Below are positions 8,452-50,528 of a stretch of 64,000 bases of DNA, piece by piece. The position numbers were made by a program, and so were the translations under genes. The DNA is from Dehalococcoidia bacterium (GTDB taxonomy: Bacteria; Chloroflexota; Dehalococcoidia; DSTF01; CAZFGZ01). The stretch lies in assembly GCA_049678585.1 (NCBI GenBank), contig JBAUEL010000110.1, positions 11,221 through 75,220 on the forward strand. The letters run 5' to 3'. The notes under the pieces are model-generated. The model had not been told where the DNA came from, made no database searches, and worked only from the letters and a program-made list of their open reading frames with translations. Position 1 is the stretch's first letter; every line of letters begins with the position of its first letter.

Positions 8452-9532
8452 AATGCTCCTCGAAGCGCGCGGCTATTCGATCCAGGCTGAACGCGTCGGC
8501 CCTCTCCGCAGCCAGCCGCCCGGCTCGTGCTACTCGCTCACGGCAAGATGCCAGGCTGAGCAGGGCATCCGCGTAGGCGCACGGGTCTCCCTCTCGACCC
8601 CGCTCGATGAGGAAGCCCGTCTCCCCCTCCGAAAGGAGATCGGGGATGCTCCCCACGCGGGTCGACAGCACCGCACAGCCTGCGGCCATAGCTTCCACGA
8701 TGGTTAGGGGCGGATCGAGGACGCCGGACGCGGTTTGGAGGGGAAAGACCAGCACGTCCAGGGAGCGAAGGAAGGAGGCCGCCTCCACCTCGCCCTGGAT
8801 GCGGACGTGTGGTTCAAGCCCCTGTTCCCTGATGAAAGTCATTAGCCACCGAAGCTCCTCCTGGAGCTCTCGAAACAGTGAGACTTGAGAGACATCGACC
8901 GCCAGCTCGAATTCCACCTGGGGGCGGGAAGCCAGCACCGCAGGGATGGCCTGGACGAACGGTCGCAGCCCTTTCCTGCGCAGCGGCGGGCCCATGAAGC
9001 CCACTCTAAACCTCTCCCTCGCGAGGCCCGACTCGGCAGCCGGGGCAGAGCGGAACCGGGCCACGTCGACGGGCGGGGGGATGTGGACCGATCCACAGGG
9101 GCGGTCACGGCCGTCAGTCGACGTGTACACGACCAGGTCTACGAATCGGAAGTGGTGTGAGCCGTGGGTCGCTGAGAGGGCTGAGTGCACATGAGGTACA
9201 GCGGCGATGCGGCTCACCGCGCTTCCCAGCAGGGCCACCTTCGGGTCCGCGGAGAGGCTGTGCACGAGATGCACCCCCGGGCGGCGCCGACGTCGAGCGA
9301 AAAGTAGCAGAACGGACAGGGCAAACCGGGGGCCTCCGAGTGACCCCAAGCGCTTCCCCCCCACCGTCTGCGCCTCGTAGGGGCCACCCCGTAGCAGCCC
9401 TCCCACCGGTTGGGTGACCACCTCGACGCGATGGCCTCGCCTCGTCAGCCCGAGAGCAAGGGTCTGCGCATACATGGCCGCGCCGTTCCCTGGCAGCCCC
9501 AAGCCGTATCCCAAGAGACAAATGTCCATCAT
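8432..9532 (-). CDS. Glycosyltransferase family 1 (GT4-like)
   Basis: C-terminal VFPLQ...EAMAAGCAVLSTRVGSIPDLLSEGETGFLIE is the GT1 E-X7-E region. The start is taken at MMDICLLGYG (ATGATG at 9532/9529), which overlaps the TGA stop of the upstream membrane-protein gene (ATGA coupling). The ORF track extends 23 codons further upstream. Confidence 0.8.
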   Translation of the reverse strand: MMDICLLGYGLGLPGNGAAMYAQTLALGLTRRGHRVEVVTQPVGGLLRGGPYEAQTVGGKRLGSLGGPRFALSVLLLFARRRRRPGVHLVHSLSADPKVALLGSAVSRIAAVPHVHSALSATHGSHHFRFVDLVVYTSTDGRDRPCGSVHIPPPVDVARFRSAPAAESGLARERFRVGFMGPPLRRKGLRPFVQAIPAVLASRPQVEFELAVDVSQVSLFRELQEELRWLMTFIREQGLEPHVRIQGEVEAASFLRSLDVLVFPLQTASGVLDPPLTIVEAMAAGCAVLSTRVGSIPDLLSEGETGFLIERGREGDPCAYADALLSLASCRERVARAGRLAAERADAFSLDRIAARFEEHYAQLVG

Positions 9533-11796
9533 GGGTTCCCGGAAACCTCGTCCGGCGCTGCTGGCGCGACAAGGTAGGCGGTTACATCGCCTCCCTCCCA
9601 CAAGGGCCGGAAGTAGGGAGACCCCTCCAGCCAGGCTAGCGTCGCGAAGTCAGCTGGGTCACCGTACACCGGATTCTTGAGGTGTCGATCGACCAGGGCG
9701 AAGGTGATCCCATGTTCCCGGATCAAGTCCTCGCTGACGAATGACTGCAGCCCGGACGCGTCGCCGGGGGGATTGCCCTGGAGGGTGAAGAGCAGGGTCA
9801 TCTCGGCCCGAGGCGATCCCGGCTTCACCTCAGCCACGACCATGTCCTCGCCGGGAGGCAGCGTGAGCGTCGCCTCCTCCCCTTCACCGCCGAGCAGGTC
9901 GATGAAGACGCCGACCTGCCAGGGGCCGAGGTGGTCCCCGCCGCTGAATGGGGAGGCCTGCTGCACCGGCACGACTACCTTCGTGACCGGGCCGGTCTCG
10001 GATTCCAGTCTCAGGACGACGGTCACGTACTCGCCGTGCTCAGGCAGCGTGACCTCCTTGACGACGCGGAGACCGTCCAGCTCGTACGTACGCCGGTCAA
10101 CGAAGGCACCGCTCTCCACAGCGGTTACCGATTCCTGAAACTCGGCGTCGGCCAGCGTCACCCGCCGCAAGGCGGGGCCAGCGCCGTACTCAATCTCGAT
10201 CAGACTGTCATCGAGATAGAGGAGGTGCTTTAGCTCCCCGTTGTCGATGCCCAAGGCCGGATCCATCGGCACGTCCCCAGCGATGTAGGCGTCCGCGACG
10301 AAGACTAAGCCGTTGGTCGTCACCCGGTCCCCTGCCAGTAGGGCGCTGCCGATGAGTGTCTGCGCCCGCCGCTCAGCCCTCGTGAATATTCTGCGCTGGC
10401 TGGCCTCATACACGCGCCGGCCGGCCAGTCCCTCGGCCCACCATCCCAGCCCCCTCAAGTTGGCCACACCCGCGCCTGCCGGAGCGTTCCGGTCCACAGC
10501 CTCGATGGCCGTCACGTGCTCCGGCCGCAGGTACCCGTAGTACACCGCCGCCTCCTTCACCAGAGAATGTCCTCTCCACATCGTGAAGGTAGCCAGCGAG
10601 GCCAGCACCGCCAGGACACAGACGGAGCCCACCGCTGCAATCCGCCTGCCGCGGGCAGCCTGCACGAGGGCGTCGGCGCCCACGGCAAAGCCGAGCCAGA
10701 CGGGCACATAGAGGAAGTAGAGCGACCGTCTCCCTACTGCGCCCGTAACCAGCATGTCAAGGGCGAAGGGGACGAAGAACAGGGTCAAGGGGAGCGCGCT
10801 TGCAACGGGACTCCGGCGAAAGAGGACGACAGCCCCCGCAAGGGCCACAAGTGCGAGGGCCGCCCAGAGAAGAGGATGGTCGGCGGGGAAGGAGAAGAAG
10901 TAGCGGAGGTTGTCCCATCCGCCGCGCAAACCATCCAACGAGTGGACGACCGTGAGATACATTTCGCTCCCGACGGCGCTCGACTGGCGGAGGTAGATGG
11001 GAACGAGGGGCAGCGATAGGACCGCTGCGACGAGCACCGCCGGCAGCAGCCTAACCACTCTCCCGCGAAGGCGACCTCCAACGGTGAGGGCGACGGCGGC
11101 GAAGGCGAGCGCCGTGGCCACATAGATGAACGCACTGATCTGGTGGGTACCCACCAGCGCCCACGAGGCGAGCGCCAGTGCGAGCACCTTCCCTCTATCG
11201 AACGATGGCGCCGTCAGGATCTCATGGATGAGGTAGAAGCACAGCGTGAACAGGCCAACACCGACCAGCGTCAGGAAGCCCCAGGAGACCGCGTCCATGT
11301 ACCTCAGGGAGAACATGAAGGGAAGCGAGACTGCGAGGGCGACGGCCTTCCCCGTGAAGCGAGAGCACAGCAGATAGAACGGGACACCAATCAGCACCGA
11401 GGCCGCCACAGCCAGGAGTTTCGTCGCTTCGAGGGGCCCGAAGAGCTGCACCATGGGCCAGAGCGCAACCCCGACCAGCGGCGGCCGCCGCAGCCCCTCA
11501 CCGGTCACATCAGTCCCGAAGAGCTGTTGCATCGTCGCCAGGTAGTTTCCCGCATCGATGCCCAGCGCGACCTGCGACCGGAGGGTAACCATCCGGTAGG
11601 CGAAGACCGCGGCGAGCGCCACCGCGAGGGCAATGGCGAATCGATGGCGCCCCAGCCATCGAAGCGACACCCGGCTCAGCTCCGGCAGCCTCGTTACCTG
11701 TTCTGTCAGTGCCCAGTCTTGCAGCACTGGACCCGATCCCTCGGACAGAGTGCGATGCCCAGCACGGGCTCGTCCTTGCGCGATACGTCGCCACAC
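9529..11796 (-). CDS. Polytopic membrane protein with a large C-terminal extracytoplasmic domain, likely a GT-C-fold glycosyltransferase. It is a paralog of the 24736..26334 gene.
   Basis: At least 10 hydrophobic helices in the N-terminal 430 aa, then a roughly 330-aa soluble domain. The N-terminal helices align with the 24736 ORF (GVPFYLLCSRF vs AVPFYLILRRG; FTLCFYLIHE vs LTVYWLMDG). Confidence 0.55.
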   Translation of the reverse strand: MWRRIAQGRARAGHRTLSEGSGPVLQDWALTEQVTRLPELSRVSLRWLGRHRFAIALAVALAAVFAYRMVTLRSQVALGIDAGNYLATMQQLFGTDVTGEGLRRPPLVGVALWPMVQLFGPLEATKLLAVAASVLIGVPFYLLCSRFTGKAVALAVSLPFMFSLRYMDAVSWGFLTLVGVGLFTLCFYLIHEILTAPSFDRGKVLALALASWALVGTHQISAFIYVATALAFAAVALTVGGRLRGRVVRLLPAVLVAAVLSLPLVPIYLRQSSAVGSEMYLTVVHSLDGLRGGWDNLRYFFSFPADHPLLWAALALVALAGAVVLFRRSPVASALPLTLFFVPFALDMLVTGAVGRRSLYFLYVPVWLGFAVGADALVQAARGRRIAAVGSVCVLAVLASLATFTMWRGHSLVKEAAVYYGYLRPEHVTAIEAVDRNAPAGAGVANLRGLGWWAEGLAGRRVYEASQRRIFTRAERRAQTLIGSALLAGDRVTTNGLVFVADAYIAGDVPMDPALGIDNGELKHLLYLDDSLIEIEYGAGPALRRVTLADAEFQESVTAVESGAFVDRRTYELDGLRVVKEVTLPEHGEYVTVVLRLESETGPVTKVVVPVQQASPFSGGDHLGPWQVGVFIDLLGGEGEEATLTLPPGEDMVVAEVKPGSPRAEMTLLFTLQGNPPGDASGLQSFVSEDLIREHGITFALVDRHLKNPVYGDPADFATLAWLEGSPYFRPLWEGGDVTAYLVAPAAPDEVSGNP

Positions 11797-11989
11797 GATT
11801 ATGGGTTAGCACGGATGCCGACACTATTGGGGGAAACCCTGTCTCCCCCGGTCCGACATCCCGCACAATGCTGCCGCGCGAACCCTGCTTCTAGGGGGGA
11901 TGAACCCGCAGGATGCGGGCAGTCCCCTATCGCCGCCGGCACTCTGCCCATCGATACTGTAGCCCGAGTAGAAGGACGCTCACATAGCC

Positions 11990-12826
11990 GTGCAGAGTCT
12001 CCGCGCCAGCAACGAAAGAACCTACGACGCCTCGGCAGCGCGATGGGGCCGGCGTGTCTCGAAGCGGGTAGTTCTTAGCGGAGGAAGGGGTTACAGGCGA
12101 CGCAACGAGAGGTTTGCCCGGTTTCTGGGCCTGACGGCCGACGCCCGGGTCATCGAGTTCGGGAGCGGCATCGGCACCCTTACGCTGACCCTCGCCGCCC
12201 TTGGATGCAGGATGACCGCAACCGATGTCTCACAGGGGGAACTCGATCTACTTCGGGGAAACGCCGAGACGCTGGCCCTCGCCGACCGACTCGAGATGGA
12301 GAGGGGAGATCCCGCCTCCCTCCCCTCCGACTGGCAGGGGACGTTTGACTTCGCCGTGACGTCCAGCGTGCTCCACCACGTCGAAGACCCCTTCGAATTC
12401 GTGCGGTCCATGGCACGGTTCGTGAAGCCGGGCGACTGGTGCGGAGGCCTCGAGCCGAACGCCGCATCCCCCGTCATGCGCTTGATCCAGGAGGTCGGGT
12501 TCTGGCTGCCCAGGTACGTCTTGGGCGACCGTGCTGCGGAGAAGAACTTCCACACCAGCACGGCGCACCGTTTGCACGCCTACGCGACGCGCGCGGGGCT
12601 GCAGAACGTGGAAGTGGTGAAAGTGGACCTTTTCCCCAGGCCTCTCCTGAGCCGCCTGCCGTTCCTCCACGCTGTCGAAGACCGCCTCACCTCATTGCGG
12701 CTCGTCAAGCCCCTCTGCATCACGCTGTTCTGGAGGGGGCAGAAACCGGGCCCGTCAGGCGACGGCCGGTGCCGACCGCGTGGTTACCAGTTCCGCGCGG
12801 AGGGAAGCCCAGCCGTGGGGGTATGA
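11990..12826 (+). CDS. Class I SAM-dependent methyltransferase
   Basis: Motif I VIEFGSGIGTL followed by DFAVTSSVLHHV (motif II/III-like). GTG start at 11990. The true start is uncertain because there is no internal ATG before the methyltransferase fold. Confidence 0.6.
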   Translation: MQSLRASNERTYDASAARWGRRVSKRVVLSGGRGYRRRNERFARFLGLTADARVIEFGSGIGTLTLTLAALGCRMTATDVSQGELDLLRGNAETLALADRLEMERGDPASLPSDWQGTFDFAVTSSVLHHVEDPFEFVRSMARFVKPGDWCGGLEPNAASPVMRLIQEVGFWLPRYVLGDRAAEKNFHTSTAHRLHAYATRAGLQNVEVVKVDLFPRPLLSRLPFLHAVEDRLTSLRLVKPLCITLFWRGQKPGPSGDGRCRPRGYQFRAEGSPAVGV

Positions 12827-12917
12827 GAGATGTCGCAACGGCCGCAGCGTGTCGTCGCCATCGGCCTGGCCAACGTCTAGCTGATCTCGGCGCCTCGATC
12901 TCCCGAAGGAGGTAAGT

Positions 12918-13904
12918 GTGGGGCCACGGCGGTGTCTCGGCTGGGGGATTCGATTCGCGGGACTCCTAATCCTCCCGCTGCTGATCTGGCTGGGCGTTGA
13001 CGTCGGGTCGACGGTCGATATCATCCGCCAAGCAAACGGTTCCCTGGTACTTGCGGCCATCGCACTCACGATGGCTGGGGTGCTCCTGCGGGTTTGGCGC
13101 TGGCGGGTCGTAGCCAGGGCCTGCGGCGTCCCATACACGAGATACCTCGACTACTTGAGACTCTACTTCACCGGCCTGTTCGCCGGCACAGCGATGCCTC
13201 AAGTTGCGGCTGTATTCGTGCCCGCGCTTTTCATCTCTGGGGAAGGCGGACCCTGGCGACGCGCCGCCGTGAGCATTCTCCTGGACAGGTCGCTGGAGAT
13301 GGTGCTGCTCCTCGGCTTTGCCCTGTGGGGGGCTTTCTACCTGTTCCCGGCCGCGTCGCCTGCCGTTTTCGCTGCGGCTGGGGCAGTTTGCCTCGGAGGA
13401 GCCGGCATGCTCGCTTTGGGTTACGCCGGGAGGCGCAGGCGTGTGAACAGCCGTCGCCTGCGGCATCTCACCGCACGCTTCTTCAGCTTCGCCAAGGTCG
13501 AGCAGTGGGGCCCAACGGCGAAGGCGTTGAGCGGATCCCTAGGTCCGCTGGCCCTGGCTTCACTCGTGATCCTTGCGTTGCAGGTTTCCGTGGCCGTGTC
13601 GCTGGCCGGCGCGCTTGACTTGCAGGTTTCCCTGGTCTTCCTCGTAGCAACGTACAGCCTCGTGCTCCTCGCGACGAGTCTACCGATCTCGGTGCTGGGA
13701 CTCGGCCCGCGGGAGGGCGTCCTCGTGGCCGTGCTCACGGCTTCGAGTGTGACAACTGAGGAGGCGCTGGCGCTCGGTATTCTGCTGTCCAGCGTAGTAA
13801 TCGCGACGCGCCTGCCGGGCGTGGTGCCGTGGTTCTGGCACCGGCGAGCGAGTACGTCGGCCCCGACGCTGAAGGATGACCTCAGGTTCATACGCAGCGA
13901 CTAA
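12918..13904 (+). CDS. UPF0104 / lysyl-phosphatidylglycerol-synthase-TM (MprF flippase-like) family integral membrane protein
   Basis: 328 aa with about 8 TM helices. The N-terminal helix is followed by the conserved R/W-rich loop (LRVWRWRVV). Strong RBS AAGGAGGT 5 nt before the GTG start. Paralogous to 26350..27459 (LRYLRWRRLL). Confidence 0.6.
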   Translation: MGPRRCLGWGIRFAGLLILPLLIWLGVDVGSTVDIIRQANGSLVLAAIALTMAGVLLRVWRWRVVARACGVPYTRYLDYLRLYFTGLFAGTAMPQVAAVFVPALFISGEGGPWRRAAVSILLDRSLEMVLLLGFALWGAFYLFPAASPAVFAAAGAVCLGGAGMLALGYAGRRRRVNSRRLRHLTARFFSFAKVEQWGPTAKALSGSLGPLALASLVILALQVSVAVSLAGALDLQVSLVFLVATYSLVLLATSLPISVLGLGPREGVLVAVLTASSVTTEEALALGILLSSVVIATRLPGVVPWFWHRRASTSAPTLKDDLRFIRSD

Positions 13905-14098
13905 CGCTCCTTTCGGCGGTCCATCCGGTGCGATGCCTGCAGCCAAAGCCGACACCAATGGTGACACTGCTCCGGAAGCCTGGAGCCAAGCCTTCAGGGA
14001 ATCCCTCTGCCGATAGCAAAGAACAGCCCAATCACCGGACCCCGTATGCCCAGGGCGCGCGGCATCGATAGAGGCGAGTCGGTGCGGCGGGAGGCCGC

Positions 14099-14710
14099 CT
14101 ACCAGCTCCTGTACTCCTCGCTCATCCTGCGGTACTCGATGAGCGGCTCGTCGATGGCCTTGGCGGCCAGGATGATCTGACACGATTCCTCCAGGCAGGA
14201 GACCCACTGGAACGCCTCGTCCAGCGTCTGACCGATGGCGAAGCAGCCGTGCCCCCTCAGCATGACGATCTTGTACTCCCGCAGGGCCGGCGGGATCTTC
14301 TTCTCAAGCTCGCCCGAGCCCGAGGCCAACTCCGCGGCGACGACAGGGACCCTGTGCAGCAGGTAGGACCCCTCGACGTCGATGGGCACGATCTCATCGC
14401 GCGAGAGGGAGAGGGCGATGGCGGTGCGCGGGTGGGCGTGGAGGATGGCCAGAGCGGGCGTGGCCAGGTAGATGGCGCGGTGTACGACCAGCTCGGTGGA
14501 GGCCAGTGCGATGCCGCTGTCCGGCTTCTCCAGCCCCGTCTCGATGAGGTCGCCTTCTTTCAGGCGGCCCAGCATGGCCCCGCGTCGCTTGATGACCACG
14601 CGGTCGCCGAAGCGCATACTCATGTTGCCCCCGTGCGAGGAGATCAGCCCGCCCACGTACAGGTCGCGGCCGATCTCCTGGAACTGGCGGAATACCTGCT
14701 TGTCGATCAT
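14099..14710 (-). CDS. Class II aldolase/adducin-family protein (L-fuculose-/rhamnulose-phosphate aldolase-like)
   Basis: The class II aldolase fold shows in the GNMSMRFGDRVVIK / GIALASTELVVHRAIY / AILHAHP regions, with His zinc ligands. 203 aa. Confidence 0.7.
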   Translation of the reverse strand: MIDKQVFRQFQEIGRDLYVGGLISSHGGNMSMRFGDRVVIKRRGAMLGRLKEGDLIETGLEKPDSGIALASTELVVHRAIYLATPALAILHAHPRTAIALSLSRDEIVPIDVEGSYLLHRVPVVAAELASGSGELEKKIPPALREYKIVMLRGHGCFAIGQTLDEAFQWVSCLEESCQIILAAKAIDEPLIEYRRMSEEYRSW

Positions 14711-14725
14711 GCTCGCTCTCCGGTC

Positions 14726-16507
14726 TCAGCAGGCCAGGTCCAGCAACTCCAGCTCCTCTAGCTTGTGGCGCGAGGGCACGCCCTGGGCGTCCCAACCCCG
14801 GAAGCGATAGTACTCGTCGAGCATCTCCAGCAGGTGTGACACCCAGCCCTCGCTCGGCCCGCCCGGCGCCGGCTCCTCGAGCAGGCGGCGGGGCAGGGTG
14901 TCGTCCGCACGGGTGAAGCCCTCGCGGAGATTGTACAGCCGCTCCAGGTTCCAGATGCGCTCGCCGGCCCGGATGAGGTCGCCGGTGGAGTAGGGGATGC
15001 CGCTAACGGAGGTGAGGGCGCGGGCGTAGTACTCCTCGGCTACGGCCATGCTGGTGAACTTGCAGACGACCAGCGAATCGACGGCCGCGGCGCTGTTCTG
15101 GTGGAGGATGACCATGCCCGCCTTGCCCCGCACCTGGAAGCGGTCGATGAGCTTGGGGAGGCCGAGCACCTCCGGCCCCAGCATGTTGCCGCGCATGTGG
15201 CAGGCGCCGCGATTGGAGGTGGCGTAGAGGAGGCCCTGGCCCTGCATGCCACGGGGGTCGTAGGCAGGCATCTCCAGCCCCTTGACCGTCATGGAGTATT
15301 GTGCTGCGCCGTGGCGCTCGGCGAAGCGGCGGCTCCCCTCGGCCAGCTCGCCGCCGAGCCCCTGGCGGCAGGCGATGGCGCGGATGGTGTCGTGGAGGAG
15401 ATCGGCGCGGCCGAAGCGGAGGTCGCCCTTGACGATGCCGCGCTCCGCCAGCTCCATGGCGCAGGCGATGGTGGCACCGGTGGAGATGGTATCGAGGCCC
15501 AGGTCGTTGCAGAGGTAGTTGGCCTCGGCGATCGCCTCCAAGTCGGCGATGCCGCAGGTCGCACCCAGCGCCCAGAGCGATTCGTACTCGGGACCCTCGC
15601 CTTCCTGGTGGGAGGTCCTGGTGACCCGCGTACAGGCGATGGGGCAGGCCCAGCAGGCGGTGTTCTTCACCAGCAGGCTATCGGTGAGGGCCTCGCCGGA
15701 GATCTCCTCGGCGCGCTCGAAGCGGGCCTGCTGGAAGTTGCGCGTGGGCAGGGCACCGATGGCGTTGACGATGTTCATGACCACAGCCGTCCCGAACCGC
15801 GGGAGGGCCTGCGAGGTGAGGGGGCTCGCCGTCAGGTGCTTGGTCACCTCGTATCGGATGAAGCGGAAGCGCTCGCGGTCGGCAAGCCCGGGCTTCTCCT
15901 CCCCTTCGACCACGACGGCTTTCAGGTTCTTGGAGCCCATGACAGCGCCCGGACCGCCGCGCGCGAGCGAGCGCGTGCCGTCGTTCATGATGGCCGCAAG
16001 GCGCACCAGGTTCTCGCCGGCCGGGCCGATGCAGAGCACGTTGCGGCGGGGCCCCTGCCCCAGCGCCTCCGTCGTCTGGGAGACGGTCTTGCCCCAGAGA
16101 TGGGAAGCATCGTGCAGCGTGGCGCCCGCGGGCGTCACCTCCAGGTAGACAGGGCTTTCCGCCCGACCCCTCACGATGAGCGCGTCGTAGCCGGTGCGCT
16201 TGAAGCGCATGCCCCAGAAGCCGCCGGAGTTGGCGTCGAGGACGGTGCCGGTCAGGGGCGACTTGGTGGAGACGGAGAAGCGGTTGCTGGTCTGGAAGGC
16301 CGTGGCCGTCAGCGGACCGCTGCAGAAGATCAGGGCGTTATCGGGCGACAAGGGCTCGACCTCGGGGCCCACCAGGTCCCAGAGCAGGCGCGCACCCAGG
16401 CCGCGTCCGCCCAGGAAGAGCCGGGCCATATCGGCATCGAGCGGACGCGAGCGGATGGCCCCGGTGCCCAGGTCGACCTCCAGGAGCTTCCCCATCCATC
16501 CGTACAT
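14726..16507 (-). CDS. Tungsten-containing aldehyde:ferredoxin oxidoreductase (AOR family)
   Basis: N-terminal AOR domain (MYGWMGKLLEVDLGTG...PLDADMARLFLGGRGLG...ALIFCSGPLT). C-terminal tungstopterin/4Fe-4S-binding region with CWACPIAC. 593 aa. Confidence 0.85.
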   Translation of the reverse strand: MYGWMGKLLEVDLGTGAIRSRPLDADMARLFLGGRGLGARLLWDLVGPEVEPLSPDNALIFCSGPLTATAFQTSNRFSVSTKSPLTGTVLDANSGGFWGMRFKRTGYDALIVRGRAESPVYLEVTPAGATLHDASHLWGKTVSQTTEALGQGPRRNVLCIGPAGENLVRLAAIMNDGTRSLARGGPGAVMGSKNLKAVVVEGEEKPGLADRERFRFIRYEVTKHLTASPLTSQALPRFGTAVVMNIVNAIGALPTRNFQQARFERAEEISGEALTDSLLVKNTACWACPIACTRVTRTSHQEGEGPEYESLWALGATCGIADLEAIAEANYLCNDLGLDTISTGATIACAMELAERGIVKGDLRFGRADLLHDTIRAIACRQGLGGELAEGSRRFAERHGAAQYSMTVKGLEMPAYDPRGMQGQGLLYATSNRGACHMRGNMLGPEVLGLPKLIDRFQVRGKAGMVILHQNSAAAVDSLVVCKFTSMAVAEEYYARALTSVSGIPYSTGDLIRAGERIWNLERLYNLREGFTRADDTLPRRLLEEPAPGGPSEGWVSHLLEMLDEYYRFRGWDAQGVPSRHKLEELELLDLAC

Positions 16508-16549
16508 GCGCGCACCTCGCGTCCGGCCGCTCTGACTACGGGGGGCCTA

Positions 16550-17773
16550 TCAGCCGGTCGGAAAGCCGCCGCCTGCCCCCGAGGCCGCGCCACGCTCGGC
16601 GGCCACCTTCTGCTCGTAGCCGCTGGCCCTGAGGGCGGCCAGGGGGTCGGCGTCCAGCCCCATCTCCAGGCGCACCTGGGCCAGCAGGGGGCGGACGTCG
16701 GTCTCGAAGGCGTCAGTCAGGGCGCGATGGGCGCCCAGCACATCGCCGGCGGCCTGCCGCTCCGCCAGGTCCTTTCGGTCAACGATAAGGGCGCGAGCAT
16801 AGGCGGCCTGCACGTTGAGGACCGATTGCACCATCGCCTCGATCTTGGGCTCGATGTTGTGGCTCTGGTCGATCATATAGGCCACGTCACGGGCCGTCTC
16901 GCCCGCGGCCACCAGTTCATTGTAGATGAGGAACAGCTCGAAGGGATTAACCGTGCCCACGATGAGGTCGTCGTCGGCGTACTTGCGGGCGTTGAAGTGG
17001 AAGCCGCCCAGCCTGCCCTCGTCCAGCAGGAAGGCCACGATGTGCTCGATGTTCGTCCCCTGGGGGTGGTGCCCGGTGTCCACCAGGACCTGCGCCTGAG
17101 GCCCCAGCTTTGTCGCCAGCGCGTAGGCAATGCCCCAGTCGTCGATGTCCGTGTGGTAGAAGGCCGGCTCGAAGAACTTGTACTCGATGAGCATGCGCAT
17201 GCCTGCCAGCATGGCCGCGTACACCTGGCGGAGCGAGTCCAGCAGCCGTTGCTTGCGCTGGCGGATGGAGTCCTGCCCGGGGTAATTGGTGCCGTCGGCG
17301 AACCAGAGGCTCAGGAGCGTCGAGCCGGTGGCCCGGGCGATCTCCACGCACTCCAGGATATGCTCCACGGCCTGCCGCCGCACCGCCGGGTCGGGATGGC
17401 ACACGCTGCCGAGCCTGTAGGCGTCGTCCTGGAACAGGTTGGGGTTGATGGCGCCGATGCGCAGCCCCAGCGACTCCGCATGGGCCCTCAGTTCGGCCCA
17501 GTCGTCCACCTTATCCCAGGGGATGTGCAGCGCCAGCGACGGGCAGATGCCGGTGAGCCTGTGCACCATGGCCGCATCGGCCAGCCTCTCGCGCACGTCG
17601 CGGGCGGCGCCGGGCCAGGGGAAGGTCTTGAAGCGGGTGCCGCTGTCGCCGTAGCCCCACGAGGGGGTCTCGATGCACTGCGCCTTCAGTGCGCTCTTGA
17701 CGCCCTCGATGTCCAGGCCACGGTCGGCTAGCCGCGCCGCCAGCATGTCGTATGCTTCGGAATGATGGTCCAC
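16550..17773 (-). CDS. rhaI: L-rhamnose isomerase of the xylose-isomerase-like TIM barrel type (actinobacterial / P. stutzeri type)
   Basis: 407 aa. N-terminal [19 protein letters not shown] and internal HIPWD ... [16 protein letters not shown] fit the metal-dependent sugar isomerase TIM-barrel family. It sits next to a GH78 rhamnosidase. Confidence 0.65.
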
Positions 17774-17802
17774 GTCAAGCCTCCCCCAGAGAGCCGGTCT
17801 CT

Positions 17803-18240
17803 CTAATCGACCGCCAGCGCCGTCACGCTCCGCGGCTCGATCTTGAGGATGACCCGTCGCTCCCCTGGCTGCCGGAACGGATACCGGTCCTGTCCCATGT
17901 ACTGCTTGGCCAGGCTATCGATGTGCTCCTCAGCGCCCTCACGCGTTATCTCGACGACGCGTCCCCGTATCGCTGCGAAGGCATAGGGGTTCGCCTGACT
18001 GATCACGTCCAGAGCCACCCGAGGGTCGCGGCGCACGTTCCGCGACTTCTGTCGATCCTCCGCCGTGTTCACCAGGATGTGCGTCCCGTCGTAGTCCACC
18101 CACACCGCCGTCACCTGAGGCGACCCGTCGGGCATCAGCGTCGCCAGGTGCGCGATGTTGGGCTCCTCAAGCAGCCTGCGTACCCCTGTCGATATCGTCG
18201 CCATCATCGCACCTCCTTGCGGCAGTGCTCTGCCGATCAC
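17803..18240 (-). CDS. PPOX-class (pyridoxamine 5'-phosphate oxidase-like) probable F420-dependent enzyme
   Basis: [32 protein letters not shown] matches the Rv1155-like split-barrel family. The true start is probably MMATIS at 18207. Confidence 0.6.
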
Positions 18241-18267
18241 CCGTGGGATCGCCTGGCCATCTCGCCC

Positions 18268-20871
18268 TCACGCTTTCGCCTCCAGCTCCAGTTCGCGCGG
18301 CCCCTGGACGACAAGCGTGATAGCCTCCTCGCCGCGGATGACGTGGGATACCCCCGCTCTGGCCTGTGCCGCCGCATCCGTGAGCACGTCGCCCACGTCG
18401 CCCACCCGGAGGGCCCTCCAGCCGCCGGGCCGCGAGGGCAGGGTGATCTCGGCGGTGCTGCCTTCGGGGATGGCGGCCGAGAGCCTGAATTCTTCATCAC
18501 GCTTCTCCCAGGCCACCCGGATGTCTCCCTTCACCGTAGGGAAGACACCGCGCGCCCAGTCGAGGCCGGCGGGCTGCGGGGCGATGCGGGCGCGGGCGAA
18601 GCCCGGCTCCAGGGGCACCACGCCCAATACCTCAGTGGAGAGGTCGAAGGTGGGCGTGGTGGACCAGGCATGGCACTGGCTGGCCACCGGATGCCAGACC
18701 TCCCAGATAGAGGTAGCGCCGGCCTCGATCATGGCGCCCCAGCGCTGGCGGATGTTCCGGACCAAGTCGTCGTACCTGTCAGCGCGGGCCAGGGCGCGGT
18801 GGACGTGGTGCATGAAGAAGGGCTGCGCCAGCACCACGTGACGCTCCTCATCGAAGTCCACCTGGTAGGGCGCGGAGAGCATGCCTATCGAGGTCAGGGC
18901 CAGGCGGGACTCGTCGAGGATGGTGGCGAAGATGCGCTCCCACCGCTCCGGTGGGGCGATGTCGTAGGCGATGCAGACGGCGTTGGCCTGCTGGCTAAGG
19001 CGGCGGCTCTGCTGGCCGTCTACGCAGGCGTCCACGTAGGCGCCCCGCTCCTCGCTCCACAGGCGGGCGTTGACGGCCTCGCGGATGCTCTGGGCGCGGG
19101 TCGCGCATCTCTCCGCAATGGCAGCGAGGCCCAGCCTGCGGGCCAGGTCCTCGACCACGCGCAGGGTCCGGTAGTAGAGGGCGTTGTAGACGGTGCCCTC
19201 GCCGCGGCGGTCCACCTCGGCCCAGTCCACGAAGTTCCACTCCGGCACCCTGTTGAGAAGGCCGTGCTCGTCGATGAAGCGGTCGAACCAGTCCAGGGCC
19301 CGCAGTACCGAGGGCAGGAGCTCGGCGGGCATGTCCAGGTCGCCGGTGTACTCCACGTACCGCCCCAGGGACATGATCCAGCACAGACACCAGTCAGGGA
19401 TGGTGAGGAGGCCCGCCGCCGCGAAGTCGCTGGGAGTAGCCATCTGAGTCATCCCGTCGGGGCGCTGGCTCTGGGCGACCTGCCGTAGCATCTGGGCCAC
19501 CAGCGCGGTGTCCCCAAAGGCCACGTAGTTGGTCAGCGACTCCACGTAGGCGTCGCCGATCCACTGGCGCTGCTCGCGGGAGGGGCAGTCCTCGAAGCCA
19601 TCATGCATGCAGAGGCGCAGGGTGTGAGCCCCGGCCCACCAGATGCGGTTGAGCATCGGGTCCGAACACTCGAAGGAGCCCCGCTCCTCCACGGGGTACA
19701 GCGTCTCGTTCAGGGCGACCCTGTGGAGGGTCACCGGCCCCCGCGGGTTGCGGACGGTGATCTGGAGGTAGCGGAAGCCCGCCCACTCGAACTTCTCCCA
19801 TCTCTGCCGGCCCTCCCGGGCGATGTAGCGGTGCACGGTGGGCGACCAGATGGGGGTGCGCGGGGGCGGCTCTGGCCGGTCGTCCTTGAGGCGCTCGGCG
19901 TAGGCGATGTCGAGGACCGTGCCCGCCGACGCGCTCACGTCGAGGCGCGGGTAGCCGGTGACCACGTCGCCGAAGTCCAGCACGATGACCGCGTCGCGGC
20001 CTTCGCCCGGGGCGATGGTGGCCGGGCCGGCCGCCCCAGGCAGCGCCTCGGCGCCCTCGATCCGGCGGGCCGTCGGCTCCAGCAGCACCTCGCCGCTCAC
20101 CTGCTCGAAGATATCGGGGTCATCCTTCAGCGGCTCCACCTCGCCCAGGGTGGCAACGGCGGCGGGCAGCCGCTCTTCCTCCGAGAGGAACGGGATGGCC
20201 CGCGGGACCATCACCGGGAAGGGGCGGACGGGGCTGGCCAGGTTCAGGGGCGGGACGGTGAGCACGACAGCCTGCTCCCAGCCCCCGTGGTCGAGTTCCG
20301 GGGACGCCCACTCGCGCAGGGCCTTCCCGGCGTCGAAGACCTCCATGAAGCCCACGGCGCCCGGGAGGGTGTCCTGCTGCCAGGCCTCCTCCTTGCGACA
20401 GCGCCAGGAGTCGTCGGAGTCGACCTGTACCTGGCTCCCGTCCGCCAGCACGACATCACACTGGAAGAAGACGCTGCCGCAGCCGAAGGCGGCCAGGTGG
20501 AACCGCGAGGGAAGCTGGTACCAGGACATGTCCCTCCCGTAGGAGTGCAGGAGGAGCGCCACGACGTTCCGTCCGGGGCGCAGGTGGGCGGCGATGTCGC
20601 GGGTATCGAAGTACTGGAAGGCGGGGTCGCAGCGGGCCGGGCCGCGGCCCACGAAGGCGCCATTGACATAGAGATGGTACCGGCCGTCGGCCGAGGCATG
20701 CGCAAGGGCCTCACGGGGTGCCGAGGCAAGCTCAAACGTCTTGCGGAAGTACCAGAAGGCGTTGCGATCCTCCGAGAGGTCCGGTCGCTGCTCGCCCCGC
20801 AGGGGGAAGACGCCGCTGAGGGGACGGGGCGGCGAGATCCACTGGGCACGACGTACGAACCGGCTGGTCAT
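18268..20871 (-). CDS. Alpha-L-rhamnosidase (GH78)
   Basis: 867 aa. The N-terminal region is typical of bacterial rhamnosidase N-domains (FWYFRKTFEL...GRYHLYVNGAFVGRGPARCDP). The central six-hairpin catalytic domain carries conserved Trp/Asp-rich segments (GFEDCPSREQRQWIGD). Confidence 0.75.
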   Translation of the reverse strand: MTSRFVRRAQWISPPRPLSGVFPLRGEQRPDLSEDRNAFWYFRKTFELASAPREALAHASADGRYHLYVNGAFVGRGPARCDPAFQYFDTRDIAAHLRPGRNVVALLLHSYGRDMSWYQLPSRFHLAAFGCGSVFFQCDVVLADGSQVQVDSDDSWRCRKEEAWQQDTLPGAVGFMEVFDAGKALREWASPELDHGGWEQAVVLTVPPLNLASPVRPFPVMVPRAIPFLSEEERLPAAVATLGEVEPLKDDPDIFEQVSGEVLLEPTARRIEGAEALPGAAGPATIAPGEGRDAVIVLDFGDVVTGYPRLDVSASAGTVLDIAYAERLKDDRPEPPPRTPIWSPTVHRYIAREGRQRWEKFEWAGFRYLQITVRNPRGPVTLHRVALNETLYPVEERGSFECSDPMLNRIWWAGAHTLRLCMHDGFEDCPSREQRQWIGDAYVESLTNYVAFGDTALVAQMLRQVAQSQRPDGMTQMATPSDFAAAGLLTIPDWCLCWIMSLGRYVEYTGDLDMPAELLPSVLRALDWFDRFIDEHGLLNRVPEWNFVDWAEVDRRGEGTVYNALYYRTLRVVEDLARRLGLAAIAERCATRAQSIREAVNARLWSEERGAYVDACVDGQQSRRLSQQANAVCIAYDIAPPERWERIFATILDESRLALTSIGMLSAPYQVDFDEERHVVLAQPFFMHHVHRALARADRYDDLVRNIRQRWGAMIEAGATSIWEVWHPVASQCHAWSTTPTFDLSTEVLGVVPLEPGFARARIAPQPAGLDWARGVFPTVKGDIRVAWEKRDEEFRLSAAIPEGSTAEITLPSRPGGWRALRVGDVGDVLTDAAAQARAGVSHVIRGEEAITLVVQGPRELELEAKA

Positions 20872-21180
20872 CGAGCGCCTCCTGGCTCATCGGGCGGGCG
20901 ACGCACCCTGGTAGAAGCTACGCCCCGCGCAGCGGCGGGTCAAGGAGGAGGGCCGGCTGTGGGCGCGGTTCTGTCCACGATTCGCCTCCCCTCCTGAGAG
21001 TGGCTCCGTTCGGCACGGGACGGAGCAGCCAGACGGGTGATGCGGGAACGCCCCAATCTTTGCGGGTCAGGCCCCCTAAGGGTTCCGGCTCATAAGGGAT
21101 GTCACCCAGGGAACATCGGGAAGGCCCCTATCTCGGTGGGTGTGCTTCAAACGGAACATGTATCCGAGCAGGAGAGCCGA

Positions 21181-22392
21181 ATGGCCAAGGCAGTGAGCGC
21201 CAGCACCAAAGTCCCCGTCACAGGCCCTGAATCGTCCGTCTCCCCAGAGACGGAGCGCGAGGCAGGCCTGGTCGATGTTTCCATCGTCATGCCCTGCCTC
21301 AACGAAGAGGAATCGGTTGCGACCTGCGTGACCAAGGCCCGTCGCTGGCTGGAGCGGGCAGGGCTCAGCGGCGAGGTCATCGTCGTCGACAACGGGTCCG
21401 AGGACGCCTCTGTCCGACACGCCACCCAGGCGGGCGCGAAGGTGGTCCATGAGCCCCGTCGCGGCTACGGCAGCGCGCTCCTGCGCGGGATCGTCGAGTC
21501 GCGCAGCCGCTACGTGGTGATGGGCGACTGCGACGACACCTACGACTACACGGACCTGGACCCCTTCATCGAGGCCCTGGAGGGCGGCGCCGACATCGTA
21601 GTGGGCAACAGGTATGCGGGAGGAATCGTCCCGGGCGCCATGACCTGGAGCCACCGCCACATCGGGACGCCGGTGATCACCTTCCTGCTTCGTCTGTTCA
21701 GCGGCGCCCGACTGGGAGACAGCCAGTGCGGGCTGCGCGCCTTCACCCGGGTGGCGTTCGAGCGGCTGGAGCTCCACACGCCGGGCATGGAGTTCGCCTC
21801 CGAGATGATTCTGAAGGCCGCCCGAAAGGGCCTGCGGGTGGTGGAGGTTCCAATAGCGTACTACCCGCGCGTCGGCGAGGCGAAGCTGAGGACGTTCCGC
21901 GACGGCTGGCGGCATCTCCGGTTCCTGCTCCTGATGAGCCCGCACTTCCTGTACACGGTCCCCGGCATCCTGCTGGCGCTGACGGGATCGCTGATCCTGA
22001 CCCTGGGGCTGGCTTCTTCCGAGGGCATTGTCATCGGCCCTGTGGTGTGGCAGCCGGTGTTTGCGGGCTCCATCCTGATGATCCTGGGGATCAACGCGCT
22101 CATCTTCAGCGGCATCGCCAACCTGTACACCACTTCGCTCGGTCTCACGCAGCCCGACCTGATTCATGCACTGGCCTGCCGCCTGCTTCGCTTTGAGGTA
22201 GTCATCGTTGGTGCCGCCGCGCTCATCGCCATAGGCATTGGGCTCGACATCTTCCTGCTCGTGGAGGACGTCTCGGCCGCCGCGGTCCCCAACAGGCTGG
22301 GTCTGGCCGCCGTCGCCCAGGCGATCATCCTGAGCGCGGGCAATTTCGGGCTGGCAGGCTTCCTGGCAAGCCTGTTGAACGGCGCCAAGTAA
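21181..22392 (+). CDS. GT2 polyprenol-phosphate sugar synthase (DPM1/GtrB/ArnC-like) with C-terminal TM helices
   Basis: VSIVMPCLNEEESV ... VVDNGSEDAS ... GDCDDTYD (DxD) ... DSQCGLRAF is the GT2-A signature. Four C-terminal hydrophobic helices follow. The start is taken at ATG 21181 (MAKAV); the ORF track extends to 21037. Confidence 0.75.
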   Translation: MAKAVSASTKVPVTGPESSVSPETEREAGLVDVSIVMPCLNEEESVATCVTKARRWLERAGLSGEVIVVDNGSEDASVRHATQAGAKVVHEPRRGYGSALLRGIVESRSRYVVMGDCDDTYDYTDLDPFIEALEGGADIVVGNRYAGGIVPGAMTWSHRHIGTPVITFLLRLFSGARLGDSQCGLRAFTRVAFERLELHTPGMEFASEMILKAARKGLRVVEVPIAYYPRVGEAKLRTFRDGWRHLRFLLLMSPHFLYTVPGILLALTGSLILTLGLASSEGIVIGPVVWQPVFAGSILMILGINALIFSGIANLYTTSLGLTQPDLIHALACRLLRFEVVIVGAAALIAIGIGLDIFLLVEDVSAAAVPNRLGLAAVAQAIILSAGNFGLAGFLASLLNGAK

Positions 22393-22444
22393 GGCTCGAC
22401 CAGCAAGCCGGGCCCGGCCGACCGGAAGGATCCGTGGAGAGGGT

Positions 22445-23647
22445 ATGGATACCACCACAAGGCCCCTGAGGATCCACGTATTCACCGATTACTTTCGTCC
22501 CCACGTCGGCGGCGGCGTCGAGCGGGTGGTGGAGGAGGCGTGCCGTCGGCTGGCGGAGCAGGGACACCTTGTGCGGGTGTTTACGTTCAACACTGGCGGG
22601 GCACCGGCGTACGAAGTCATCGGTGGCGTCCATGTTCATCGGGCCCGCGCACTCCAGTTGACACGCCTCATCCGCATGCAGAGCTCGATCTCACCGAGTC
22701 TGCTGCCCCTCGCCTGGAGGCTGGGCCGATCCGAGCCCCCCGACGTGCTCCACGCCCACAACCTGTTCTTCTTCTCAACCATCGTGGCGGTGCTCCTTCG
22801 CCGCCTGCTCAAGAAGCCGCTGGTCACCACCCTGCACCTCGGTCCGCTGGACCAGCTAGGCGGTCCCTTCCGGGTTCTGGCATCGTCCTATGAGCGGGTC
22901 CTGGGACGGGCTATCGTCCGCAGGAGCGACCGGATCATCGCCGTGAGCAACGCGGTCGGCGCCCACGCTGCTCACCTGGGAGCCAAGCCCGAGACGGTGC
23001 GGGTCATCCCGAACGGGGTGGACGCGCAGCAGTTCCAGCCCGGCGAAAGGAGCGCAGACGGGACGTTCCGGATCGCCTGTGTCGGCCGCCTCATCTTCAA
23101 CAAGGGCCCGCAGTACCTCGTGGAAGCAGCGCCTGAGGTGCTCCGTGGCCATCCACAGGCGGAGTTCGTGATGGTGGGAGACGGGCCCCTGCGCGCCCGG
23201 CTGGAGGAACGTGCCCGCCGACTGGGGATCAGTCACCGCGTTACCTTCCTGGGGACTCGGTCCGACGTAGCCGCGATCCTGCAAACGTGCGATGTGCTGG
23301 TACGCCCTTCCCTTCTGGAAGGGATGCCGCTGACGGTCCTGGAGGCTATGGCCTGCGCTCTGCCGGTGATCGCCACGCCGGTCTCCGGCACCGCAGAGCT
23401 GGTGCGGCACGGTGAGAACGGCCTCCTGGTCCCGCCGACCGACCCCGCGGCCCTGGCTTCGGCCATCCTGCGGCTGATAGAGGACGTGCCGCTGCGGGAG
23501 CGGCAGGGCAGGAAGGGGCGGCAGTTGGTAGAAGGCGGCTACACCTGGGACGCCGTCGCCAGGCAGACGCTGTCCGTCTACGAAGAGCTGGTGCCCCGCC
23601 CGAGTGACGAGGCGGCGACGGCGGAACCCCTGGCCAGGGCAGCGTAG
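22445..23647 (+). CDS. Glycosyltransferase family 1 (GT4-like)
   Basis: N-terminal HVFTDYFRPHVGGGVERVV. C-terminal SLLEGMPLTVLEAMACALPVIATPVSGTAELVRHGENGLLV (E-X7-E). An RBS GGAGAGGG precedes the ATG. Confidence 0.8.
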   Translation: MDTTTRPLRIHVFTDYFRPHVGGGVERVVEEACRRLAEQGHLVRVFTFNTGGAPAYEVIGGVHVHRARALQLTRLIRMQSSISPSLLPLAWRLGRSEPPDVLHAHNLFFFSTIVAVLLRRLLKKPLVTTLHLGPLDQLGGPFRVLASSYERVLGRAIVRRSDRIIAVSNAVGAHAAHLGAKPETVRVIPNGVDAQQFQPGERSADGTFRIACVGRLIFNKGPQYLVEAAPEVLRGHPQAEFVMVGDGPLRARLEERARRLGISHRVTFLGTRSDVAAILQTCDVLVRPSLLEGMPLTVLEAMACALPVIATPVSGTAELVRHGENGLLVPPTDPAALASAILRLIEDVPLRERQGRKGRQLVEGGYTWDAVARQTLSVYEELVPRPSDEAATAEPLARAA

Positions 23648-23659
23648 AAGGAGTTGCGC

Positions 23660-24739
23660 ATGGTTCGGGTAGGGAAGCCGCTCTCCGTGGGCATTGTCGG
23701 GGCGGGCTGGGTCGCCACCGCCCGGCACATCCCTGCCTTTCAGCGCGACCCTCGGGTCCGTGTGGCCGCCCTGTTCGACCTCGCTCCCGGGAAGGCAGGG
23801 GAGGTCGCCCGGCAGTATCGCATACCGAGTGCGTTCCATGACCTCTCCGAGTTCCTGGCCACGGGCCCGGACATCGTCGCTATCTGCACTCCGCCGTGGA
23901 CGCATGCTCCCATAGCAGTAGAGGCGCTACACCGCGGCTGCCACGTCCTGGTCGAGAAGCCCATGGCGATGTCCTCGGAGGAGGCCTCCGCGATGATCGA
24001 TGCGGCGAGAGAGGGCGGCGCTCGCCTCTGCGTCGCCCACAACTTCCTCTTCTCGCGCTCGATGCGAAAGGCCCTGAGCCTTATCGAGCGTGGCATGGTC
24101 GGGGAGGTGCAGCACGCCATTGCCCTTCAGCTCAGCAGCCCCAGGCGGCGGCTGCCGCGCTGGTACCCAGACCTGCCCGGCGGCCTCTTCTTCGACGAGT
24201 CGCCCCACATGATCTACCTGCTGCGCCGATTCTTGGGCGATCTCTCTGTAGCGCAGGCCTGGGCCGAGGCCGCCCCGCCCGGGATGGACCAGAGACTGGA
24301 CCGGGTAGAGGCTCGGCTCCAGAACAGCGAACACAGCGCCCACCTCAACATGTCCTTCCGCTCCCCTATCTCGGAGTGGCTGGTGGCGGTTGTAGGGACT
24401 CAGCGGGTGCTGGTGGTGGACGTGTTCCGGGACATCCTGGCGGTCCAGAAGCCCGATGGCGCACACGGCTCCGCCGACGTGCTGAAGAGTTCTTCCCGGC
24501 TCTTCCTCCAGGGGCTGATGGGCTTTGCGACCTCCGGGGCTCTCTTCGCCACGAAGCGGCTGCTGTACGGCCATGAGACGTTGGTCCGCCGCTTTATCGA
24601 CGCCGTCGTGGATGGCGGAGCCGTCCCCGTGGCGCCCGAGGAGGGCATGGCCGTGGTGCAGACCATGGAATCGATCCTGAAGCAGGCGTTCACTTCTATG
24701 GATAGCACCAAGAGCGCCGGCAGGGTTCCCACCGCATGA
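23660..24739 (+). CDS. Gfo/Idh/MocA-family NAD(P)-dependent sugar oxidoreductase
   Basis: Rossmann motif GIVGAGWVA, then CTPPWTHAPIAVEALHRGCHVLVEKP. An RBS GAAGGAG lies 6 nt before ATG 23660. The stop overlaps the next gene's ATG (ATGA). Confidence 0.8.
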   Translation: MVRVGKPLSVGIVGAGWVATARHIPAFQRDPRVRVAALFDLAPGKAGEVARQYRIPSAFHDLSEFLATGPDIVAICTPPWTHAPIAVEALHRGCHVLVEKPMAMSSEEASAMIDAAREGGARLCVAHNFLFSRSMRKALSLIERGMVGEVQHAIALQLSSPRRRLPRWYPDLPGGLFFDESPHMIYLLRRFLGDLSVAQAWAEAAPPGMDQRLDRVEARLQNSEHSAHLNMSFRSPISEWLVAVVGTQRVLVVDVFRDILAVQKPDGAHGSADVLKSSSRLFLQGLMGFATSGALFATKRLLYGHETLVRRFIDAVVDGGAVPVAPEEGMAVVQTMESILKQAFTSMDSTKSAGRVPTA

Positions 24740-26334: not shown

Positions 26335-26349
26335 TGGCATCCACGAACC

Positions 26350-48520: not shown

Positions 48521-50528
<2,008 letters not shown>

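Follow-up and report, generated by a model that had tools for sequence, protein, structure and literature searches.

A probable rhamnose operon with an embedded aldehyde:ferredoxin oxidoreductase

The 64,000-nucleotide stretch of contig JBAUEL010000110.1 analysed here (the window), from a Dehalococcoidia metagenome-assembled genome (MAG), carries five minus-strand genes in which an aldehyde:ferredoxin oxidoreductase (AOR) is embedded among genes for L-rhamnose degradation. Gene content and genomic context make it probable that this block is a rhamnoside and L-rhamnose catabolic operon in which the AOR oxidises, with ferredoxin, the L-lactaldehyde derived from the adjacent class II aldolase (hereafter Ald203). 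In the proposed scheme, the GH78 alpha-L-rhamnosidase would free L-rhamnose, the isomerase RhaI would convert it to L-rhamnulose, and a rhamnulokinase, ancestrally encoded by the last gene of the operon but truncated in the window, would form L-rhamnulose-1-phosphate. Ald203 would then cleave this compound into dihydroxyacetone phosphate (DHAP) and L-lactaldehyde, and the single-subunit AOR would oxidise the latter to L-lactate, with a ferredoxin whose gene lies outside the operon as electron acceptor. Many relatives would then oxidise this lactate to pyruvate via LutABC or racemise it with LarA. The first-pass annotation of this DNA had already suggested a ferredoxin-linked oxidation of lactaldehyde to lactate by the AOR, and the comparative genomics described below supported this idea through the embedding of AOR genes in rhamnose (rha) and fucose (fuc) loci, the existence of compact operons and the linkage to LutABC and LarA.

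The co-directional block of GH78, RhaI and class II aldolase genes with an AOR gene inside, as first annotated, was confirmed by profile searches as five open reading frames (ORFs) on the minus strand. The first gene of the operon (18268–20871, 867 aa) encodes the GH78 protein, in which four Pfam domains scored above their cutoffs (Bac_rhamnosid_N PF08531, Bac_rhamnosid PF05592, Bac_rhamnosid6H PF17389 and Bac_rhamnosid_C PF17390), giving the N-terminal, concanavalin-like, six-hairpin catalytic and C-terminal order. NCBIfam equivalog models of characterised enzymes all scored far under cutoff for this protein, and a Shine–Dalgarno-like AGGAGG lies 7 nt ahead of its ATG. It is followed by a gene for an F420-dependent PPOX-class protein (17803–18240; an ORF of 145 aa, or 134 aa from the probable start at 18207 in the MAG annotation), which matched the subfamily model TIGR03618 with 124.6 bits (cutoff 79.05), and by that for RhaI (16550–17773; 407 aa, or 398 aa from the annotated start at 17746), which matched the equivalog model TIGR02635 (RhaI_grampos) with 618.8 bits (cutoff 531.35). 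The AOR gene (14726–16507) encodes a single subunit of 593 aa with AFOR_N and AFOR_C domains, assigned to the tungstopterin/[4Fe-4S] family, and precedes the gene for Ald203 (14099–14710, 203 aa), a class II zinc aldolase recognised by Pfam Aldolase_II and by the NCBIfam model NF006413 ('aldolase'; 212.8 bits, cutoff 203).

The intergenic gaps within the five-gene block were only 15–42 bp, and the block is flanked by a convergent LPG_synthase_TM gene (12918–13904, plus strand) and a divergent GT2 gene (21037–22392, plus strand). This tight spacing between convergent and divergent neighbours makes the block a candidate for a self-contained transcription unit. All five genes were intact, with dN/dS values of 0.09–0.19 against close relatives. 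A weak terminator-like hairpin (14025–14041, minus strand) lies approximately 60 nt past the aldolase stop codon; the region contains two terminator-like sites, and shuffled sequences would give 1.8, so that the hairpin alone is not significant. A scan of the region for sigma-70 promoters, which is uninformative for this phylum, gave zero matches, and an Rfam scan of the window detected neither a molybdenum or tungsten cofactor (Moco/Tuco) riboswitch nor any other riboswitch. Third-position GC was 0.86–0.93 in the operon genes and 0.74–0.85 in neighbouring genes, a rise that could reflect either high expression or a different origin.

Conservation of the AOR–aldolase pair

Two collections of loci were compared with the window: a genome set of 80 species-level loci retrieved with the AOR as the query, and a metagenome set of 80 independent loci retrieved with the aldolase as the query. 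The genome set consisted entirely of Chloroflexota (Dehalococcoidia, Anaerolineae, Thermoflexales and Ardenticatenia) and included one isolate, Anaerolinea thermolimosa; the closest relatives of the AOR were found in Chloroflexota MAGs labelled as Dehalococcoidia. Both sets were picked by similarity to the query and therefore sample one AOR clade (61%–96% identity). Of the 71 genome loci that extended far enough downstream, 70 had Ald203 as the next gene after the AOR, in the same orientation and separated by a median of 26 bp; in the metagenome set, the AOR directly preceded Ald203 in all 65 loci that extended far enough upstream. With adjacency in 135 of the 136 informative loci, drawn from two collections assembled independently, the arrangement is far beyond chance. 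The order of the surrounding genes and the type of isomerase (RhaI, E. coli-type RhaA or FucI) varied around the pair, while the rha/fuc theme remained constant. The conserved unit is thus the AOR–aldolase pair, which behaves as a two-gene module.

A second AOR lineage of approximately 565 aa, 35%–36% identical to the AOR of the window, was also found in rha clusters (14044–15747 in L006 and L024, 6656–8347 in L035 and 6001–8290 in L172; related loci are numbered with the prefix L). In L172, this AOR is preceded by a 192-aa aldolase that is 54% identical to Ald203, so that the order of the two genes is inverted, and the neighbourhood includes a lactate permease gene. The L172 AOR was 72% identical to the second-lineage protein ('AOR2') found beside rhamnulokinase or LarA–RhaM in L006 and L035. 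L172 represents an independent aldolase–AOR pairing.

Two apparent fusions of the paired genes were rejected. In L066, AOR and aldolase were joined in a single in-frame ORF of 787 aa (10041–12401). When this fused sequence was compared with 5.8 billion proteins, however, all matches were unfused proteins of approximately 597 aa, some of them 93%–95% identical, and this case is most likely a (long-read) assembly error. In L025, the apparent fusion was merely a long out-of-frame ORF.

Deoxyhexose and lactate genes around the pair

The first-pass annotation had proposed a survey of how often AOR-family genes are embedded in rha or fuc loci, and this proved to be the case in most of the approximately 160 Chloroflexota loci. 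Linkage was counted in loci of at least 8 kb with a panel of deoxyhexose genes (RhaI, RhaA or FucI, rhamnulokinase, RhaM, RhaD-like and RhaEW) and lactate genes. One of the three isomerases was present in 46 of 68 genome loci and 19 of 25 metagenome loci, any deoxyhexose gene in 52 and 21, and any deoxyhexose or lactate gene in 55 and 22, respectively (81%–88%). By our own rough estimate, with no computed control, a 20-kb segment drawn at random from a 4-Mb genome (approximate size) with one or two rha loci would include such a locus in roughly 1% of cases.

The genes directly adjoining the pair followed the same theme. The gene immediately before the AOR encoded RhaA in 26 loci, RhaI in 12 and a MoaD/SAMP1-like protein in 29, the last of which is absent from this position in the window. 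The gene immediately after the aldolase encoded LutA in 15 loci, rhamnulokinase in 11, RhaEW in five and LarA in three. Clustering of all ORFs of the genome loci, with no families chosen beforehand, placed rhamnulokinase-like FGGY kinases (36 loci) and RhaA (28 loci) first among the neighbour families, followed by a sugar ABC transporter, LutB, LutC and LutA, a RhaD-like aldolase of 273 aa, and LacI and DeoR regulators; further families comprised the MoaD/SAMP1-like small protein, RhaM, RhaI, LarA and FucI. The LutB, LarA and RhaEW proteins of these neighbourhoods scored above their NCBIfam equivalog cutoffs. LutABC, which mediates L-lactate oxidation, lay directly downstream of the pair in 15 loci, and the lactate racemase LarA was close by in some loci. 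Of all the observations, this position of LutABC points most strongly to lactate as the AOR product.

Two layouts recurred. A typical layout was RhaB–RhaD–RhaA–AOR–Ald203–LutABC (L029, L048, L074, L118 and L127), and a compact one was GH78–RhaI–AOR–Ald203–RhaB (L092, L098 and L099), which also occurred without GH78 (L011, L089 and L093). The compact operons provide one gene per step from rhamnoside to DHAP and lactate; Ald203 is the sole aldolase in RhaI-type clusters such as L011, L089, L092, L093 and L098, and the AOR is the sole candidate for the lactaldehyde step. The earlier proposal that the AOR replaces an NAD-dependent lactaldehyde enzyme is too simple, given that RhaEW (TIGR02632) often accompanies the pair and was encoded in the same cluster in at least 13 loci.

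GH78 lies directly upstream of RhaI–AOR, with or without the PPOX gene, in L090, L092, L098 and L099. In L090, a 96% identical relative, a sulfatase gene (4264–5643) overlaps the start of the GH78 gene, which hints at sulfated rhamnose-containing polysaccharides as the natural substrate. The PPOX gene, noted at first sight as part of the same strand run, is indeed there and matches its TIGR03618 family; however, it lies outside the conserved module. Only the window, L001, L090 and L092 have it in the position between GH78 and RhaI, and the other approximately 155 loci lack it. Its candidacy as a pathway member was therefore dropped, and it is treated as a lineage-specific passenger.

Features of the two paired proteins

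The AOR showed both family domains over almost its full length, AFOR_N (PF02730; residues 6–202, E = 2e-76) and AFOR_C (PF01314; residues 220–588, E = 1.5e-144), and matched the Pyrococcus furiosus AOR (1AOR) over its full length with 609 bits; the match to 9mqx_D scored 617 bits. In a HMMER alignment to 1AOR, the [4Fe-4S] ligands Cys288, Cys291, Cys295 and Cys494 (P. furiosus numbering) were retained, as were Thr243, Glu313, Tyr427 and His448, the residues characteristic of aldehyde-oxidising members of the family (PMC13328260). No gene for a poly-ferredoxin or FAD subunit adjoined the AOR gene or occurred among the frequent neighbour families, which places the protein among the single-subunit ('class I') enzymes, with free ferredoxin as the expected partner. 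A tungsten rather than a molybdenum cofactor, and ferredoxin as the electron acceptor, are likewise inferred from the family. No tup genes were found in the window.

The AOR-linked aldolases were always 203 aa long, shared at least 57% identity and formed essentially one cluster at 50% identity. Ald203 is a stand-alone protein without a short-chain dehydrogenase/reductase (SDR) domain and is not a member of RhaEW. Although only 25% identical to E. coli FucA, it retains the zinc ligands His92, His94 and His155 and the catalytic Glu73 of that enzyme (FucA numbering) as the invariant columns H91, H93, H154 and E73. In the phosphate site, Asn29, Gly44 and Ser71 are kept, and Ser72 is replaced by Thr. 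The retention of the zinc, Glu73 and phosphate-site residues indicates a metal-dependent ketose-1-phosphate aldolase that requires a phosphorylated substrate. From the completeness of the pathway in the RhaI–AOR–Ald203–RhaB operons, we infer that this substrate is L-rhamnulose-1-phosphate and possibly also L-fuculose-1-phosphate. The closest solved relative was 2fk5 (E = 1.7e-35, 126 bits). An invariant Tyr116, which may or may not be equivalent to FucA Tyr113, occurs in the Ald203 clade near the segment in which the latter residue would be expected.

Truncation of the rhamnulokinase gene

Past the aldolase gene, the window retains the start codon and first five codons of rhaB (14050–14065, minus strand; ATGCCGCGCGCCCTGG). 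The remnant is defined by a blastn breakpoint and by an alignment of the window, L090, L092 and L094. L092 has 93% nucleotide identity to the window across the whole operon and then continues into an intact rhamnulokinase-like gene, the homology ending at position 14052 of the window; a resolvase-domain ORF was observed in L092 approximately 2.3 kb past rhaB. The window and L090, after the five shared codons, diverge into the neighbouring envelope-glycosylation cluster. The L092 kinase scored 486 bits against TIGR02627, and the kinases of the relatives at the rhaB position scored 465–518 bits, just below the cutoff of 528. More distant relatives (L009, L011, L089, L093, L094, L098 and L099) all have a kinase at this position, which indicates that a six-gene operon is ancestral. 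The kinase-less junction is common to the window, L001 (MAG GCA_049678065.1, 99.9% identical to the window) and L090, and the loss of rhaB in the window reads as a recent truncation. L090 (kinase-less) and L092 (kinase-bearing) are 99% identical across the operon; this difference reflects either a recent structural polymorphism or recombination among close strains, or a chimeric contig.

The window had been described at first as devoid of a rhamnulokinase, with the kinase placed elsewhere or the pathway considered non-standard. The former statement is correct apart from the remnant, whereas the latter option is wrong, given the rhaB remnant and the intact kinase at this position in relatives of 93%–99% identity. 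The FGGY kinase encoded at 33113–34711 (plus strand) was considered as the missing rhamnulokinase and rejected, as it is XylB (TIGR01312, 567 bits) and adjoins XylA.

A consequence could be that the operon of the source genome was disabled recently and survives as a remnant, the loss of rhaB having broken the pathway while the other genes remain intact owing to the recency of the event. The five residual codons, the lack of any rhamnulokinase in 64 kb and the coexistence of alleles with and without the kinase at 99% identity (L092 and L090) are all in line with such a decay. We nevertheless consider it rather unlikely. The five remaining genes are intact, with the low dN/dS values given above against relatives that are 93% identical at the nucleotide level, and the window, L001 and L090, which are approximately 7% apart, have the kinase-less junction in common. 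A second kinase copy may also be present elsewhere in the genome.

Weighing of the proposed function

Several observations weigh against a ferredoxin-linked rhamnose pathway in this organism and its relatives. Within the 64-kb window, there is no rhamnulokinase other than the five-codon remnant, and no ferredoxin, transporter, mutarotase or regulator was found close to the operon; the ferredoxin motif CxxCxxCxxxC[PAG] was not detected in any frame of the window. In approximately 15%–20% of well-flanked loci, neither rha/fuc nor lactate genes lie within 10 kb of the pair. This includes the only isolate, A. thermolimosa, in which the pair is isolated between unrelated genes, and this strain was set aside as uninformative for the rhamnose link. 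Many clusters also encode a RhaD-like or FucA-like aldolase or a complete RhaEW, which renders the module formally redundant and leaves the constant travel of the aldolase with the AOR unexplained. Possible reasons for the additional aldolases are alternative use under oxic and anoxic conditions, different stereospecificities or mosaic assembly of the clusters. At the protein level, the segment of FucA containing Tyr113 aligns to a four-residue deletion in Ald203. The closest aldolase relatives without a linked AOR lie next to an IF-2B/MtnA-like isomerase gene (L177, 919–2606; 53% identity, overlapping genes, DHAP-shunt-like) or beside a transaldolase/fructose-6-phosphate aldolase (FSA) gene (L175, 267–1530; 47% identity), indicating that the wider PRK08660-type family is functionally mixed and not specific to rhamnose. 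Moreover, the assignment of the whole clade is based on sequence and genomic context.

Some of these observations would be expected if the AOR were a broad-spectrum aldehyde detoxifier whose position in the operon has no meaning for the pathway. Characterised AORs are promiscuous, the pair stands alone in some genomes, and detoxification is the usual assumption for bacterial class I tungsten oxidoreductases and for the AORs of Chloroflexi, which have been read generically in published work on that phylum (PMC5481317, PMC3971608). A general detoxifier, however, would hardly be paired with one aldolase clade in 135 of 136 loci, nor would it be expected to have LutABC directly downstream in 15 loci. 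The deoxyhexose or lactate linkage of 81%–88% also persists despite differing gene orders and isomerase types, and linkage across such different layouts suggests selection rather than one inherited arrangement. This explanation is therefore unlikely.

The pair might instead act on another deoxy-ketose phosphate and merely neighbour the rha genes. Candidate substrates are 5-deoxy- or 5-methylthio-ribulose-1-phosphate, as in a DHAP-shunt-like pathway yielding acetaldehyde or methylthioacetaldehyde, or a pentulose-1-phosphate yielding glycolaldehyde. The overlap of the 53% identical aldolase relative with the MtnA-like isomerase gene, the frequent presence of RhaD-like or RhaEW aldolases in the same cluster and the stand-alone pairs speak for such a role. 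In contrast, no MtnA-, MtnK- or MtnP-type gene occurred among the frequent neighbours, Ald203 is the sole aldolase of the RhaI-type operons, where it lies beside a rhamnulokinase-like kinase, and the genes that come after the pair are related to lactate and not to acetate. Another ketose phosphate thus appears quite unlikely.

A reductive role, in which the AOR would draw on reduced ferredoxin to turn lactate into lactaldehyde and the route to 1,2-propanediol would act as a redox sink, in the manner of acetogen AORs, is very improbable: AORs are described as reversible and as reducing acids in acetogens and Thermoanaerobacter, but no lactaldehyde reductase or FucO-type gene was found among the conserved neighbours, and the lactate-oxidising LutABC is the commonest downstream partner. 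None of these four explanations fits the linkage to LutABC and LarA and to the rha/fuc genes as well as the oxidation of Ald203-derived lactaldehyde by the AOR.

Relation to known systems and implications

The nearest parallel to the AOR–Ald203 pair is RhaEW, in which a class II aldolase is likewise locked to its L-lactaldehyde-oxidising enzyme in rha loci, including those of Chloroflexi. RhaEW is a bifunctional L-rhamnulose-1-phosphate aldolase/L-lactaldehyde dehydrogenase, and its aldolase required the dehydrogenase for activity (Rodionova et al. 2013, PMC3870299). RhaEW is, however, one polypeptide with an SDR-type, NAD+-dependent oxidising part, whereas the present pair consists of two genes, a pterin/[4Fe-4S] AOR that presumably uses ferredoxin, and an aldolase of a distinct 203-aa clade. 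The pair may thus represent a ferredoxin-linked counterpart of RhaEW, and its tight coupling would keep free lactaldehyde low. The E. coli rhaBAD and fucPIKA systems with AldA or FucO similarly proceed through an isomerase, a kinase and a class II aldolase to DHAP and L-lactaldehyde, and the catalytic residues of FucA are kept in Ald203; they differ in that the isomerase of the window is of the RhaI type and that the lactaldehyde step is proposed to proceed via the AOR rather than an NAD(H) enzyme. The Thermus thermophilus 'fuculose-1-phosphate aldolase' (2fk5/2flf) belongs to the same length class as Ald203 but lies outside the AOR-linked clade, and, to our knowledge, its physiological substrate has not been established.

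The AOR itself resembles the P. furiosus AOR (1AOR) and other class I single-subunit tungsten oxidoreductases in its full-length homology, identical cysteine ligands and catalytic residues, and lack of partner subunit genes. The archaeal enzymes, in contrast, are tied to amino acid-derived aldehydes and have no fixed aldolase neighbour, while the clade of the window is bacterial and located in sugar clusters. A precedent for the type of reaction exists in the archaeal non-phosphorylative Entner–Doudoroff branch, where 2-keto-3-deoxy-(6-phospho)gluconate (KD(P)G) aldolase is followed by glyceraldehyde:ferredoxin oxidoreductase. There too, the aldehyde released by an aldolase of a sugar pathway is the substrate of a ferredoxin-dependent oxidation by a member of the AOR family, although the two cases share neither the class of aldolase nor the sugar, the aldehyde or the domain of life. 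Lactaldehyde is oxidised in vitro by an AOR-family tungstoenzyme, WOR1 of Eubacterium limosum (PMC11725836); this enzyme differs from the AOR of the window in being multi-subunit and electron-bifurcating, with ties to lactate metabolism and aldehyde detoxification and with neither a deoxyhexose locus nor a paired aldolase.

Within the literature library searched, no paper was found that links an AOR to rha or fuc loci, the sole mention being a one-sentence remark in a 2022 MAG paper that AORs might detoxify lactaldehyde in Lernaellota (PMC9324843). The comparative genomics of rhamnose pathway variants, which includes Chloroflexi, mentions neither ferredoxin nor AOR (PMC3870299). A June 2026 study that grouped over 4,000 tungsten oxidoreductases by gene neighbourhood states that a role is defined for only five of 92 clades, and mentions neither aldolase, rhamnose, fucose, lactaldehyde nor Chloroflexi (PMC13328260). 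Thus, although the chemistry is unsurprising, a conserved aldolase–AOR module in deoxyhexose clusters appears to be undescribed, and a very abundant Chloroflexota AOR clade gains a specific, testable substrate and pathway from its genomic context.

If the proposed function is correct, fermentative or anaerobic Chloroflexota could oxidise a toxic aldehyde with neither NAD+ nor oxygen and would not need to excrete 1,2-propanediol; ferredoxin-linked oxidation would suit fermenters able to shed low-potential electrons as H2. All six carbons of the sugar would then reach central metabolism, instead of part being lost as propanediol as known from E. coli physiology. The lactaldehyde step would thereby have a further non-orthologous solution after AldA, FucO, RhaW and RhaZ, one that is free of both NAD+ and oxygen. 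The strict pairing also suggests a further case of aldehyde channelling. As a more speculative extension, which we put forward tentatively, the AOR and Ald203 might form a physical substrate-channelling complex, and rhamnose and fucose fermentation in much of Chloroflexota might depend on tungsten and yield low-potential electrons (H2) and lactate or pyruvate rather than propanediol. Such a complex would give a large, unassigned clade of tungsten oxidoreductases both a defined role and a dedicated partner protein. A tungsten requirement would then be predicted for the degradation of polysaccharides rich in rhamnose or fucose, such as plant pectin, algal sulfated rhamnans and extracellular polymeric substances (EPS), by organisms that dominate anaerobic digesters, sediments and aquifers.

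Other features of the window

The operon is situated inside a large cell-envelope glycosylation region (7675–13904, 21037–27459 and 44168–50828) encoding GT2 and GT4 transferases, flippase-like and LPG_synthase_TM proteins, MurJ, methyltransferases, and a GDP-mannose 4,6-dehydratase with an epimerase. The source organism seems to make a GDP-6-deoxyhexose besides degrading rhamnose. A separate pentose module at 33113–36083 comprises convergent genes for XylB (TIGR01312) and an Arthrobacter-type xylose isomerase, XylA. ARAGORN predicted an 85-nt tRNA-Arg(CCT) at 53560–53644 on the minus strand, opposite an epimerase ORF (53033–54166, plus strand); the Rfam gathering scan found no tRNA there, and the call is probably a false positive. 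Towards the end of the window, a tetrapyrrole biosynthesis cluster (56211–63999) encodes a radical SAM protein, glutamyl-tRNA reductase, a HemD/methylase fusion and 5-aminolaevulinate (ALA) dehydratase.

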